A DNA stretch of 64,000 nt from a virus (IMGVR_UViG_2675903538_000004); one strand, 5' to 3'. Positions 14,188 to 60,887 are shown, counted from the stretch's first letter. Numbers and translations are program-made. Notes: generated by a model not told the origin, from the letters alone.

Positions 14188-14447
14188 ACTCCGGCAGCTC
14201 CGCCGACTTTCGACAATGAAGTTATCGTTGGCGGCGATAGTTTTCGACTCGATTTTCATGGCGGTATATGTGCTCAATGAGACGTGGCCACTGGAACCGC
14301 TATTGTATGCCGGGCTTCGGCTGTGCCTGACATTTTTGAGCATGGCTGCAAGATTGATGCAGCAGAAAGAAACCGCTTCAGATTGTCCACGCCGCGCGGT
14401 GCGCAAATATATGGCACGCAGGCGAAGGCGATAATAGTTAACGAGAA

Positions 14448-14475
14448 CCCCGGCAGCCGCCGGGGTTATTTTTGG
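14448..14475. terminator. rho-independent terminator
   Basis: CCCCGGC-AGCC-GCCGGGG hairpin followed by TTATTTTT. Confidence 0.6.
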
Positions 14476-14478
14476 TGG

Positions 14479-17209
<2,731 letters not shown>

Positions 17210-55323: not shown

Positions 55324-56322
55324 TTATCCGTTACCGCACGACGGTTTCTGCGTGATAAACGTCTCAAGCATCTTTTCCGCAATTGCCGACCAGGTGTGAC
55401 ACTGGACCTTTTCAGCATTTTTCACGCGATCAACGCGAGCAATAACCTCATCCCAATCAATCCGCGACTTGATAACCATATGGTTCACCAAAGCCAAGCG
55501 ATCTGGCGGAAGGCAATCGGGAGGCGTTAATACCAACGCCCCGCACATTGCCGCCTCAAGTACAGTTAATCCAAGGCTTTCGGGATGCGTAACGATAAAC
55601 ACGTCACTCTTACGCAATTCAGCTGCAAATTCGGTTGCTGGCACCGGCGTCCGCCTGTATGGAGTTACCGAAATATTCCCCGGATCAATGGTAACCAATC
55701 CGTCATCAGTCAACGTTCTGGCCTCATACGGAACGGTCAGACGCTGAAGGTTCATAAGGATACTTAAGGAGTGATCAAAACCACTAACATCAAATGCAGC
55801 GTGGTCTACAAAAATACGCAGAACATCGTCCGTTTTGGTTTCCAGATGGAACAGCTCCTGATTCGCTGCCCATCCAACATGTTTGTTAAAACGATTATGA
55901 CGCTCTAACCTGCCGGGATTATCCAGGTACCGCCAGGTATCATCGCGGACAGTAAAAGTAATATCGACTGGTGCCGAATCCAGCATAGAACCGTCATATA
56001 CCTGGGCTACCCATCCAGAGAATCGGCGACACAGTTGCATGCCTATTTCCCTGGGTACCGTAGTAAAATACCTCAATCCTGGTGCCAAAATGGCCTTCGC
56101 AGAACATGCGGTCGCAGCAGTCAACACAGCTTCAACATAATCCTCCGGGCTTTCGACGCCAGGGGAATATGGACGATGGTATTGCAATGTTACCCCTGCC
56201 TCACTAAAGGCGCAGGCCAGGTTATAAGCCCACATTTCCGTATATGTTTTCACATCACTGATAGCTTCAAATTTTCGCCCAATGATCAGGATGTTCATCG
56301 GCTTTTCCTCATTCCATTGCAT
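55324..56322 (-). CDS. GT4-type glycosyltransferase-like protein
   Basis: THPESLGLTVLEAAMCGALV resembles the E-x7-E motif of retaining GT4 enzymes; immediately downstream of ban. Confidence 0.5.
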   Translation of the reverse strand: MQWNEEKPMNILIIGRKFEAISDVKTYTEMWAYNLACAFSEAGVTLQYHRPYSPGVESPEDYVEAVLTAATACSAKAILAPGLRYFTTVPREIGMQLCRRFSGWVAQVYDGSMLDSAPVDITFTVRDDTWRYLDNPGRLERHNRFNKHVGWAANQELFHLETKTDDVLRIFVDHAAFDVSGFDHSLSILMNLQRLTVPYEARTLTDDGLVTIDPGNISVTPYRRTPVPATEFAAELRKSDVFIVTHPESLGLTVLEAAMCGALVLTPPDCLPPDRLALVNHMVIKSRIDWDEVIARVDRVKNAEKVQCHTWSAIAEKMLETFITQKPSCGNG

Positions 56323-57692
56323 TAATAATCCTCTTGCCAGTCAGCACCAGCATAGTTATCAAACCGTGAGTATTGGCCGTTAAAAGCCAATCTCACCGTG
56401 CCAATTGGGCCATTTCGTTGCTTTCCGATAATTACCTCGGCAATGCCCTTCATTTCGCTATCCGGGTGATAAACTTCGTCGCGATACAGAAACATGATCA
56501 GGTCTGCGTCCTGCTCAATTGCTCCTGATTCACGTAAATCTGAATTTACCGGTCGTTTGTCCGCACGCTGTTCAAGCGATCGATTAAGTTGTGACAATGC
56601 CACCACCGGTACTTGTAATTCCTTCGCCAACGCCTTCAGTGAGCGAGAAATCTCGGCAATTTCCAGCGTTCGGTTATCTTGCAGCTCGGGGACGCGCATA
56701 AGTTGCAGGTAGTCGATCATAATCATGCTCAAACCACCATTTTCTTTATAAACACGACGAGCGCGGGAACGAAGCTCTGTAGGTGTCAGGGCGCTTGAGT
56801 CATCAATAAAAATATTCTGCTTGTCCAACAGAATACCCATTGCGCCAGAAACCCGCGCCCAATCCTCGTCGTTAAGTTGCCCTGTCCGAATACGAGTCTG
56901 ATCAACGCGTGCAAGAGAAGCCAGTGAGCGCATCATCAGCTGGTGGCTCGGCATCTCAAGGCTAAAAACCAATACGGGCTTATCGTTACGAACTGCGGCA
57001 TTTTCGACGAGATTCATCGCAAACGTGGTCTTCCCCATAGATGGGCGGGCGGCGACAATGATGAGATCGGACGGCTGAAGCCCTGCCGTCTTCTTATTGA
57101 TATCGGTAAATCCCGTATCAAGCCCCGTTACACCATCATGTGGTCGCTGAAACAACTCTTCTATGCGAGATACCGTTGCATCGAGAATGCTGGCGATATC
57201 TTTTGGACCACTACCGCTCTTTTGTCGTTTTTCAGCTATTTCAAAAACGCGGCGCTCGGCCATATCCAGCAATTCATTGCTGCCCCTGCCATCCTGCGCA
57301 TATCCAGCTTCGGCTATTTCATTTGCGACGGAAATCATTTCACGAACAACCGCGCGTTCACGAACGATATCCGCATAAGCACAAATATTTGCCGCGCTGG
57401 GCGTGTTCTTTGACATCTCCGCAAGGTACGCAAAACCACCGGCGCGTTCTAATTTACCGTTCTGTTCAAGTGCTTCAGCAAGTGTTATCAAATCAATCGG
57501 TTTGCCATGACTTAATAACCTCTCCATCTCACTGAAAATTTCACGATGAGCACTGGTATAAAAATCATCAGCAACTATACGATCTGCAACTTCATCCCAG
57601 CGGCAGTTATCAAGCATTAAGCCACCAAGTACAGCTTGTTCTGCACTAAGGGAATTTGGCATGGATTCAAGAGGGGATGCAGACATTAGCAC
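56322..57692 (-). CDS. ban: DnaB-family replicative helicase (Ban)
   Basis: 456 aa; Walker A ARPSMGKTTFAMN and DnaB N-terminal domain. Confidence 0.9.
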   Translation of the reverse strand: MLMSASPLESMPNSLSAEQAVLGGLMLDNCRWDEVADRIVADDFYTSAHREIFSEMERLLSHGKPIDLITLAEALEQNGKLERAGGFAYLAEMSKNTPSAANICAYADIVRERAVVREMISVANEIAEAGYAQDGRGSNELLDMAERRVFEIAEKRQKSGSGPKDIASILDATVSRIEELFQRPHDGVTGLDTGFTDINKKTAGLQPSDLIIVAARPSMGKTTFAMNLVENAAVRNDKPVLVFSLEMPSHQLMMRSLASLARVDQTRIRTGQLNDEDWARVSGAMGILLDKQNIFIDDSSALTPTELRSRARRVYKENGGLSMIMIDYLQLMRVPELQDNRTLEIAEISRSLKALAKELQVPVVALSQLNRSLEQRADKRPVNSDLRESGAIEQDADLIMFLYRDEVYHPDSEMKGIAEVIIGKQRNGPIGTVRLAFNGQYSRFDNYAGADWQEDY

Positions 57693-58048: not shown

Positions 58049-58075
58049 GGATTACTGCCAATTTTGCTTACGCTT

Positions 58076-58903
58076 TTATTTCACCGGAACAAACGGAACA
58101 GCGGTATTACTGGTCATATACTGCGGTAATGTACCGTTCCATTTGTTGATCGCTTCCAACTCCATAACACCGGGGTTCTGGCGCAGAGCTTCACCACGTA
58201 AACGAATGGCATCAGCTTCGGCCTGGGCTTTTGTGCGAATAGCATCAGCCTGTCCGGCAGCTTCCGCGCGCAGCATGTTGGCCTCTGCTTCACGTTGTTT
58301 GACCTCTTGCTCGCGTTGCAGGGTTTTTTGGTTTGCCGTGACTTTGGCGTTAATACTGTCAATAACTGTTGGCGGGTATTCTGGCTTACCTACATAAGAG
58401 AGGCTCATCACCTGAATGCCGATTGGCGTCATTTCTTCCTGAATGTCTTTAAGGGCTGCATCAAGCAATTCAGATTTGCCACCGTCGATAAATTTGTCGG
58501 TGGTCATTTTGCTGGCTAACCGGTTCAGAGCATCTGCAACCTTCTGGCGTAGATCGGTATCAGTAATATCATCTACACCTTTGCGATAGGTCTGAAATAC
58601 CGTTGTGACTTTTGCTGGATCAACCTTGTAGGCTACGCCGATGTGGTAACCAATGGTTGTTCCGTCGCTCATCTGGAAGCTGAACGGCTCATCGTATGTC
58701 TTCATTTGCTTAAAGGTCGGGAAGATATAAACTTCAGTATTCAAGCCTGTCCAGTAGCGACCAACGCCAACTACTTCACCGATACCTTTATCATCCCCCA
58801 GCTTATTTACTTTGATCCCTACGTTACCTGGCTCTACCCGATCGCATCCGGTCAGACATAAAGAACCCAAAATAATCGCTGCACTAATCAACGTTTTTTT
58901 CAT
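58076..58903 (-). CDS. plp: SPFH/band-7 domain lipoprotein
   Basis: Lipobox LTGC after signal peptide; prohibitin-like core; Ala/Glu-rich C-terminal coil. Confidence 0.7.
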   Translation of the reverse strand: MKKTLISAAIILGSLCLTGCDRVEPGNVGIKVNKLGDDKGIGEVVGVGRYWTGLNTEVYIFPTFKQMKTYDEPFSFQMSDGTTIGYHIGVAYKVDPAKVTTVFQTYRKGVDDITDTDLRQKVADALNRLASKMTTDKFIDGGKSELLDAALKDIQEEMTPIGIQVMSLSYVGKPEYPPTVIDSINAKVTANQKTLQREQEVKQREAEANMLRAEAAGQADAIRTKAQAEADAIRLRGEALRQNPGVMELEAINKWNGTLPQYMTSNTAVPFVPVK

Positions 58904-59120
58904 TAATTAATTTCCTGGTTTTTTCACGAAAAAAGACTACTGCGAAAGCCGGGTAAATGAGCGCGAGAAGGACTCCCAACAATACAAGTATTGTGCTGTT
59001 AGATGAGATCATATTTGGCAAAAGCCAAACATACAGAACCAGTGACACAATCAAACAGAGGACGGCATAAATATATAACCGCACCCATAGCGTTCGACAT
59101 TTGTTCGAATTGTTCTGCAT
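58884..59120 (-). CDS. upl: small membrane protein
   Basis: 78 aa, two TM segments, overlaps plp start. Confidence 0.45.
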   Translation of the reverse strand: MQNNSNKCRTLWVRLYIYAVLCLIVSLVLYVWLLPNMISSNSTILVLLGVLLALIYPAFAVVFFREKTRKLINEKNVD

Positions 59121-59279
59121 CCTCTCACTCCATTATTTAACGAATAAAAAAGCTGCGGTGCCGGGTGCCTCCCGGTGTCCTTTGGCTGGTTATCCACCGT
59201 GGACGGGGAAACAAGGAGAAATGAATGGACTGATATAACCATTTCCCCGCGTGCGCTTAGCCGCATTCACCGCAACGGA

Positions 59280-60202: not shown

Positions 60203-60870
60203 ACTTGCCGGGTACGTCTCCGGCGAGGGCTTCCACCTCCGTATGCTTTTCGGCGCACCGCGCCCTGGCTGCAATTCGGTAACAGGGGATGCATAACCCT
60301 GGCTTCCAGCGTGATTAGCGCTTTCAGCATGACGGGATATACCCGTAAATTCGTGGAACTGTACCCAAAGTGCTGTTAAGCACCGCTGTTACGCTGAAAA
60401 GAAGACGCAACAGGAAAGGACGCTGACCAACAGATGGCCCCTTCTCGTTCATCTGGTTAATCACACCAGCGCCCTTACCTGTTGTGCCTCCCCGTTCCCT
60501 AATACACAGACGGGGACACTCTGCGGTCGATTTTTTGACGGGGGACGACTCATACCCCGTGGCGTCTGGCTTCTTATGCCGCTACCATCATCAGATCATC
60601 GTTTGCATTTACTTTAATGGTCAGTTTCTAAACCGCCGCAAAGTCGCTAACCATGACGAAAACCCTGAAAAAAACGCCCACCCGAAGATGGGCAAACTGG
60701 AAGCTCGTAACGCACTTCGGTGTTGCCACTTAGGCGTATGGTCAACCTGGCAACTCGGCGTCATGAGGGGGAAGGAGTCACTACCCCGCCATACTTGCCG
60801 CCGCGCCTGTCGCGGCTAACAGCTAAATCGCTCTATAAATCACGATTCATTGATGCGATATTACACTAAT

Positions 60871-60887
60871 AAATTTATTAGAGCAAT
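60871..60887. promoter_or_regulatory. C1 operator (perfect consensus), overlapping a second inverted half (60861-60876)
   Basis: AAATTTATTAGAGCAAT is the exact reverse complement of ATTGCTCTAATAAATTT; overlaps dmt stop; head of the leftward tRNA-plp-ban operon. Confidence 0.7.

Follow-up and report, generated by a model that had tools for sequence, protein, structure and literature searches.

Dbn of phage P1: a predicted GT4-like glycosyltransferase and probable member of a split glycan-building cassette

The DNA analysed here, the window, is a stretch of 64,000 nucleotides (nt) from a virus (IMGVR_UViG_2675903538_000004). An earlier note, made from its sequence alone, described at positions 55324 to 56322 a glycosyltransferase resembling those of family 4 (GT4) and saw in its position behind the helicase gene ban a hint at its function. 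The gene is dbn ("downstream of ban") of phage P1, and we consider it probable that its product, Dbn, is a GT4-type cytoplasmic enzyme that catalyzes one step of a phage glycan cassette together with PmgO, PmgP and PmgQ, and that replication is not its task. Already known from the P1 GenBank record, which dates from 2004, are the gene, its place behind ban and a possible role as a glycosyltransferase, and a deletion has been made; what is added here is, as the best reading, that a split phage cassette for glycosylation has Dbn as its fourth member. Of the earlier interpretation the enzyme type has held, and the meaning attached to the helicase neighbour has not.

55324..56322, minus strand: dbn, longest open reading frame (ATG to stop, 332 amino acids (aa)); Met9 is the probable conserved start (ATG 56298-56296).
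56322..57692, minus strand: ban, the DnaB-type replicative helicase gene directly upstream (DnaB_C E = 1.7e-107; DnaB N-terminal domain E = 2.7e-35), named ban in P1.

The 332-aa gene described in the earlier note is present as an ATG-to-stop reading frame on the minus strand, and its upstream neighbour is indeed ban, as judged by the DnaB_C match and the P1 annotation. Across all 999 nt the window gene is 98.4% identical to dbn of P1 (NC_005856, AF234172) and 96.9-98.8% identical to the copies in 18 phage records, among them P1, P7, RCS47 and SJ46. From the P1, P7 and RCS47 copies it differs by only a few substitutions (97-99% nucleotide identity), and its flanking genes are those of P1, ban upstream and the convergent baseplate gene 5 downstream. 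By identity and flanks the P1 gene behind ban, for which a check of homology had been proposed, is therefore the same gene. In the databases P1 Dbn (AAQ14048, P1_gp078) is entered as "function unknown, possible glycosyltransferase", the P7 gene and product as glt and Glt, and the RCS47 copy as "putative glycosyltransferase, Dbn"; the RefSeq name is "glycosyltransferase family 4 protein". The whole of Dbn is covered by a match to PHROG 2518 (E = 4.6e-240), a family that bears the label "unknown function".

The gene is a real one and is under purifying selection: 70 of the 71 full-length alleles from P1-like elements are intact, 47 alleles are distinct, and the median pairwise ratio of non-synonymous to synonymous substitutions (dN/dS) is 0.12. 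The P7 allele (L002, AF503408 75040-76038) is the sole one with an internal stop codon, which explains why P7 glt is annotated shorter, with a start further downstream. Among the genomes of 401 gammaproteobacterial species a single one contains PHROG 2518, and it carries a P1-like element. A phmmer search of 1.84 billion representatives yielded 254 Dbn-related clusters at E <= 1e-3. Judged from these searches, the Dbn family is a small, phage-restricted side branch of the GT-B enzymes. All carriers that could be assigned are phages or elements of Gram-negative bacteria.

The assignment of Dbn to the GT4-like enzymes starts from a motif in the C-terminal half of the protein.

55531..55590, minus strand: putative nucleotide-sugar-binding motif THPESLGLTVLEAAMCGALV, residues 245-264, with E248-x7-E256.

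The E-x7-E signature proposed earlier withstood comparison, the spacing of E248 and E256 being right and both glutamates, like H246, G251 and G261, being invariant in 17 close and 51 diverse relatives, the latter with 25-40% identity among themselves. In the 51 relatives D173-H174 is likewise invariant and GWAAD (150-154) almost so. The check with the Pfam profile Glycos_transf_1 (PF00534) that had been suggested came out divided: the C-terminal part of Dbn (aa 229-315) is matched, and the score of 25.0 bits is below the gathering score of 26.4. For a cluster 98% identical to Dbn (P0001) a PF00534 match is precomputed and the NCBI name is "glycosyltransferase family 4 protein". Searches of NCBIfam and PADLOC with Dbn gave no hit or none that was meaningful, and sequence searches of the PDB with Dbn alone or with the 51-member profile found no close solved relative. 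It is the motif region, and no other part of Dbn, that matches Glycos_transf_1 and PDB glycosyltransferases by sequence.

The predicted fold goes further. An AlphaFold model built from a 17-sequence alignment has two Rossmann-like domains (predicted local distance difference test score (pLDDT) 88, predicted template modelling score 0.85). The top 25 Foldseek matches of this model in the PDB are GT-B enzymes, mostly named GT4 members, with E values down to 4.6e-10 and template modelling (TM) scores of 0.58-0.66. The best is GlgM (E = 4.6e-10, TM 0.66); others are sucrose-phosphate synthase, biopterin glucosyltransferase, MshA, the transferase of phage HY126, PimB', WaaB and BshA. The best viral match is a glycosyltransferase of Tupanvirus (E = 2e-17, TM 0.76-0.80). 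With GlgM, sucrose-phosphate synthase, MshA, PimA/PimB', BshA and WaaG/WaaB, Dbn would share the two-Rossmann GT-B fold, and in the C-terminal domain it has in common with them the E-x7-E signature in the context PESxGLxxLEAxxxGxxV. It differs from these enzymes in its low identity to them (only 11-14%), in its length (332 versus 360-400 aa) and in the lack of their glycine-rich N-terminal loop. The claim that Dbn is a GT4-like glycosyltransferase is upheld by motif and predicted fold, the case being borderline by sequence and good by conservation and modelled structure.

Several longer relatives of Dbn (520-630 aa; P0097, P0104, P0120-P0122, P0138, P0139, P0145 and P0147) have in common a C-terminal extension of about 190 aa. 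The extension gave no Pfam match, is marked by recurring motifs (YHY...PWP...LWLFG...DL..G...W) and could serve to bind the acceptor.

What Dbn does is suggested by its relatives outside P1. There, genes of the dbn type are found beside or fused to members of the same partner families in unrelated backbones (EP_H11, L004, L005, L165 and L086-L091).

Contig L004, with lambda-type head genes: PHROG 4603, PHROG 2111, a DxD protein, the dbn homologue and PHROG 1962, in this order.
Contig L005: order of the pmgP-dbn-pmgQ-pmgO type, with the same four families as L004.
E. coli phage EP_H11: homologues of pmgO-pmgP-dbn-pmgQ, contiguous and overlapping, one of the genes being unannotated.
Six T4-like environmental contigs (L086-L091): gp32-uvsX-x-uvsY-methyltransferase-dbn homologue-two to three PHROG 1962 genes-uvsW.

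In L004, where the cassette sits just before terminase, the PHROG 4603 gene carries the label "alpha-2,3-sialyltransferase" and is weakly MptE-like, the PHROG 2111 gene is also weakly MptE-like, and the PHROG 1962 gene is labelled "glycosyltransferase". In one protein, P0095, a PHROG 4603 (PmgO)-type domain (aa 22-220) is naturally fused to one of the Dbn type (aa 219-514). P0095 is encoded amid head-completion and connector genes (L165), together with a PHROG 1962 (pmgQ) gene and an FkbM-type methyltransferase. One of the T4-like contigs (L091) has in addition a cytidylyltransferase/cupin sugar-nucleotide enzyme and a pyruvyl transferase. The most constant neighbour is a pmgQ homologue, which adjoins the dbn homologue at 9 of 10 non-P1 loci; a pmgP homologue adjoins it in L004, L005 and EP_H11. 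Of two scans of viral contigs the first gave only P1-like copies, and the second, led by a distant member, gave the six informative T4-like loci; a narrow scan of genome contigs for Dbn relatives gave three loci only.

At the loci examined no DnaB helicase gene was found beside the non-P1 relatives of dbn. Since these relatives adjoin homologues of pmgO, pmgP and pmgQ and not DnaB, Dbn is most likely a step of a glycan-building cassette. The coupling to a helicase gene, taken in the earlier note as a clue to function, occurs only in P1-like elements, and in some of these it is interrupted.

Two observations at these loci may be added. In EP_H11 an unannotated 211-aa reading frame (L171 6400-7035; OP688485 ~42813-43448) lies between two annotated genes, encodes a PmgP homologue (phmmer E = 2.9e-56) and completes the contiguous pmgO-pmgP-dbn-pmgQ block. 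A small DxD family with the motif WIDAD and a weak match to Pfam Nucleotid_trans is encoded directly upstream of the dbn homologue in one lambda-head-type contig (L004 5423-6004) and two T4-like contigs (L087 6875-7588, L091 7423-8004); it has no counterpart in the window.

P1 itself has all four families, and so has the window, in which pmgO-pmgP-[ppp]-pmgQ occupies 46831-49389, 6 kb from dbn.

48727..49389, minus strand: pmgO, PHROG 4603 "alpha-2,3-sialyltransferase" (E = 4.4e-74), with a weak MptE-like Pfam match; sialyl/ulosonic-acid-transferase-like.
48203..48829, minus strand: pmgP, PHROG 2111 (E = 2.7e-132), paralogue-like partner with a GSGPS motif.
47529..48221, minus strand: ppp, a lambda-type Ser/Thr phosphatase gene (Metallophos E = 9e-16; PHROG 246), inserted between pmgP and pmgQ.
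46831..47532, minus strand: pmgQ, a GT8-like DxD glycosyltransferase gene (PHROG 1962, E = 1.3e-127).
50437..50453, plus strand: C1 operator, equal to P1 Op82, with 2 mismatches to the consensus, at the head of the pmgL-to-pmgQ operon.
60860..60887: two overlapping C1 operators, equal to P1 Op72ab (Obanab), with 0 and 2 mismatches to the 17-nt operator, at the head of the ban operon.

By sequence PmgO and PmgP appear to be like sialyl- and 3-deoxy-D-manno-octulosonic acid (Kdo) transferases; the N-terminal GSGPS...AVNG motif of PmgP recurs in WaaZ, a core enzyme of E. coli (pairwise E = 1e-4). For PmgQ the AlphaFold model (pLDDT 88.9) predicts a GT8-like fold, the top Foldseek matches being the GT8-type GT-A enzymes AgtA (Skp1 galactosyltransferase), glycogenin, LgtC and GlyE. 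The DxD residues D79 and D81 of PmgQ are invariant, and its YLDxD motif is common to WaaJ. A ppp homologue was not found in the cassettes of L004, L005, EP_H11 and L165.

A scan of the window for C1 operators gave 13 matches versus 0.33 expected. The control by C1 claimed in the earlier note is supported for the ban operon: a perfect operator, overlapped by a second one, heads the minus-strand operon that ends in ban-dbn. At the equivalent of 50437-50453 the P1 annotation has the late promoter LPpmgL and operator O26; a weaker C1 site with 4 mismatches lies at 49530-49546.

We therefore propose Dbn to be a retaining GT4-type GT-B enzyme, soluble and cytoplasmic, which would bind a nucleotide-activated sugar via the E248-x7-E256 loop of its C-terminal Rossmann domain. 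The acceptor would be held by the N-terminal domain, and one sugar would be transferred with retention of the anomeric configuration. PmgO, PmgP and PmgQ would catalyze the remaining steps on the growing glycan, in a pathway shared with Dbn; we infer this pathway as we do the activity and the retaining chemistry. The P1 cassette would be split in two operons, and since C1 operators head both, its two halves should be released together on induction. The product would be an accessory decoration, which the phage can do without in the laboratory.

P1 with dbn deleted forms infectious virions and plates normally (PMC9024508 Table S3, Fig. S1), and in-frame deletions of dbn, pmgO, pmgP and pmgQ cause no plating or antirestriction defect (PMC9024508). 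In a study by CRISPR interference dbn, pmgO, pmgP, ppp and pmgQ were non-essential (PMC10695390). In a transcriptome preprint dbn is among the genes deregulated in an hfq mutant. The main text of the P1 virion proteome paper mentions neither Dbn nor glycosylation, and our literature search found no paper that ties dbn to pmgO, pmgP or pmgQ.

A number of points weigh against the proposal. No biochemical activity has been demonstrated for Dbn or any of its relatives, and the Pfam score, being under the gathering threshold, is borderline. The family profile retrieves just one glycosyltransferase from the PDB, and does so via the motif region only. In the stretch LRIFVDH, after the first strand of the C-terminal domain, Dbn has the invariant D173 and H174 where the alignment places an Arg/Lys, usually as Gly-Arg, in GT4 enzymes; donor binding may for this reason be atypical, and the conserved R224 and R275 nearby could stand in for the basic residues that bind the donor diphosphate in GT4 enzymes. 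The link between the four genes consists of neighbourhood and one fusion, the four are not adjacent in P1 itself, and the deletions of dbn, pmgO, pmgP and pmgQ are without a reported phenotype.

On the acceptor our opinions are more divided. Named in falling order of probability, it might be a protein, of the phage or another, which we hold possible and would put first; the lipopolysaccharide core or another envelope glycolipid, which is somewhat doubtful; a small molecule or something else, which is unlikely; or DNA, which is improbable. The isoelectric points are uninformative as to a DNA or membrane acceptor (median of the Dbn family 6.6, WaaB 6.3).

For a protein speaks that the cassette of L165 lies within a head module. 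By analogy, the closest parallel would be the virus-encoded clusters of several transferases that decorate virions, such as those for the capsid glycans of chloroviruses, the fibril glycans of giant viruses and the O-glycans on capsid and tail of mycobacteriophages. Clusters of this kind encode several cytoplasmic transferases and frequently, like L165 and L091, also methyltransferases and enzymes for sugar nucleotides; unlike the virions decorated by them, those of P1 have not been reported to bear a glycan. In its most specific form, which we regard as a rather unlikely guess, a mobile cassette of four enzyme types (two sialyl/Kdo-transferase-like, the GT4-like Dbn and one GT8-like, to which some phages add methyltransferases, a pyruvyl transferase and a sugar-nucleotide enzyme) would build a short cytoplasmic oligosaccharide on virion or other phage proteins. 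Its carriers would be P1, E. coli phage EP_H11, phages with lambda-type heads, an HK97-type siphovirus and aquatic T4-like phages. If true, a system that glycosylates virions would for the first time be known from phages of Gram-negative bacteria, and in P1 it could have escaped notice because it is dispensable on laboratory K-12 strains.

The branch to which Dbn belongs travels with three other transferase-like families, and P1, which carries all of them, is genetically tractable and available with single-gene deletions; what such a cassette decorates in a Gram-negative host is thus open to direct test in a phage that is standard in the laboratory. Were the acceptor found (virion glycans, receptor masking or other), four P1 genes and their relatives in environmental phages would have a function.

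The best of the alternatives, somewhat doubtful in our judgement, is that Dbn and its partners remodel the lipopolysaccharide core or an envelope glycolipid of the host at the inner face of the membrane and thereby mask the P1 receptor (core glucose), which would limit superinfection or the loss of progeny on cell debris. In their broad types the four P1 enzymes correspond to core enzymes of E. coli, namely GT4-like (WaaG, WaaB), GT8-like (WaaO, WaaJ) and WaaZ-like. The motifs that PmgP shares with WaaZ and PmgQ with WaaJ, the presence of WaaB among the fold matches of Dbn, and the Gram-negative hosts of all assignable carriers agree with this. However, profile comparisons revealed no specific similarity of Dbn to E. 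coli WaaG or WaaB (probabilities <= 5%), and WaaB ranked under several enzymes with small-molecule acceptors. Also, since C1 represses the ban operon in lysogens, a lytic cycle would offer little time to replace lipopolysaccharide, and the deletions have no reported plating phenotype. Modification of an envelope component, one of the two roles considered in the earlier note, is possible.

The other role considered there, modification of DNA, is unlikely. Dbn would have to glycosylate the phage DNA and so shield it from host nucleases, as do the T4 glucosyltransferases and the arabinosyltransferases of RB69 and HY126, and this would explain the place of its gene in a replication operon. The T4 alpha- and beta-glucosyltransferases and the 5-hydroxycytosine arabinosyltransferases of HY126 and RB69 are phage-encoded GT-B enzymes as Dbn appears to be (PMC13326640), and the HY126 enzyme (PDB 9iqz) is the eighth-ranking fold match of Dbn. 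The genes of known phage DNA glycosyltransferases are often in early or replication regions; in P1 dbn comes after ban, and in the six T4-like contigs uvsY and uvsW enclose the dbn homologue, and gp32 and uvsX lie further upstream. In contrast to the phages with such systems, P1-like genomes lack an enzyme for the hydroxylated base: neither the nearest record (G002) nor two P1-like records of 96-100% completeness gave a match to the thymidylate-synthase/hydroxymethylase type (PF00303), which makes DNA glycosylation unlikely. Ordinary restriction enzymes have long been known to cut P1 DNA. The earlier note had proposed to test the restriction sensitivity of a knock-out; the published dbn deletion has the parental efficiency of plating on EcoA, EcoB and EcoK hosts, all of which are type I systems (PMC9024508 Table S3, Fig. 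S1). The cassettes amid head and connector genes (L165) and just before terminase (L004) do not favour DNA either, and the pyruvyl transferase of L091 suits a polysaccharide more than a base. The methyltransferases of L086-L091 and L165 suggest a decorated glycan, yet would fit DNA, too. Altogether we give this explanation a very low probability.

In EP_H11 a protein of the thymidylate synthase family (W01 14385-14918; 44.5 bits, 357-aa frame) is encoded about 29 kb from the cassette; the P1-like records are without one.

Scarcely credible is the last alternative, that Dbn is a decayed, non-catalytic remnant kept only through its position in the ban operon: the gene is non-essential in two independent studies, the Pfam score is beneath the threshold and the P7 allele has a stop, but 70 of 71 alleles are intact with dN/dS ~0.12, the catalytic-type residues are invariant across relatives of only 25-40% mutual identity, the model is confident and well folded, and dbn is kept in several unrelated phage backbones. 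Glycosylation of queuosine in tRNA, considered in view of the tRNA genes in the ban operon and of the GT4-like character of the animal enzyme, was dropped, as no Pfam match to the N-terminal domain of the animal enzyme was seen.

The expression of dbn together with ban, assumed in the earlier note, is likely. The P1 record also predicts two promoters for dbn within ban; contigs from RNA runs are long and flat over ban-dbn and uninformative in this respect. The operon likely ends behind dbn at a two-way transcription terminator.

55277..55303: hairpin between the convergent dbn and baseplate gene 5, with an 11-bp stem (centroid -17.6 kcal/mol, z -3.25 versus shuffles).

The hairpin begins 21 nt past the dbn stop codon and was not flagged by a scan for consensus terminators.

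The overlap of dbn with the ban stop codon that had been claimed holds for the first ATG of the long reading frame, which has one base in common with the ban TAA (TAATG), and does not hold for the conserved start. Every non-P1 homologue begins at the position of Met9 (consensus MKILIIG). The Met9 codon (ATG 56298-56296) lies 23 nt downstream of the ban stop and has its own GAGGA 7 nt upstream. The eight additional N-terminal codons of the long frame are modelled poorly (pLDDT 62 for the first ten residues). In the P1-like elements L076-L081, L085 and L115 an extra 101-aa gene (PHROG 12809, unknown function) separates ban from dbn, and in these variants dbn begins at the codon equivalent to Met9 with its own ribosome-binding site. 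Since both the non-P1 homologues and these variants start there, the true conserved start of dbn is probably Met9, past the ban stop and without overlap. The P1 annotation places the start 8 codons further upstream, where it overlaps ban; as the variants with the insert also suggest, that codon may not be in use.

Elsewhere in the ban operon the element in the window is unlike P1. Between ban and the tRNA/small-RNA region (58076-59120, minus strand) it has a reading frame for a lipoprotein-like protein of 275 aa and one for a membrane protein of 78 aa, where P1 has plp, upl and tciABC. The 275-aa protein carries a signal peptide that has a Cys, and its tail, rich in Ala, Glu and Gln, looks SPFH/band-7-like. 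Over 58057-59154 the contigs from RNA runs of other P1-like strains differ from the window in 724 letters.

On chromosome 3 of Brucella pseudogrignonensis (L169, 329407-346189) a relative of Dbn with 38% identity is encoded at the end of a run of seven genes on the same strand, one of which encodes a 734-aa protein with a GT4-like motif region.

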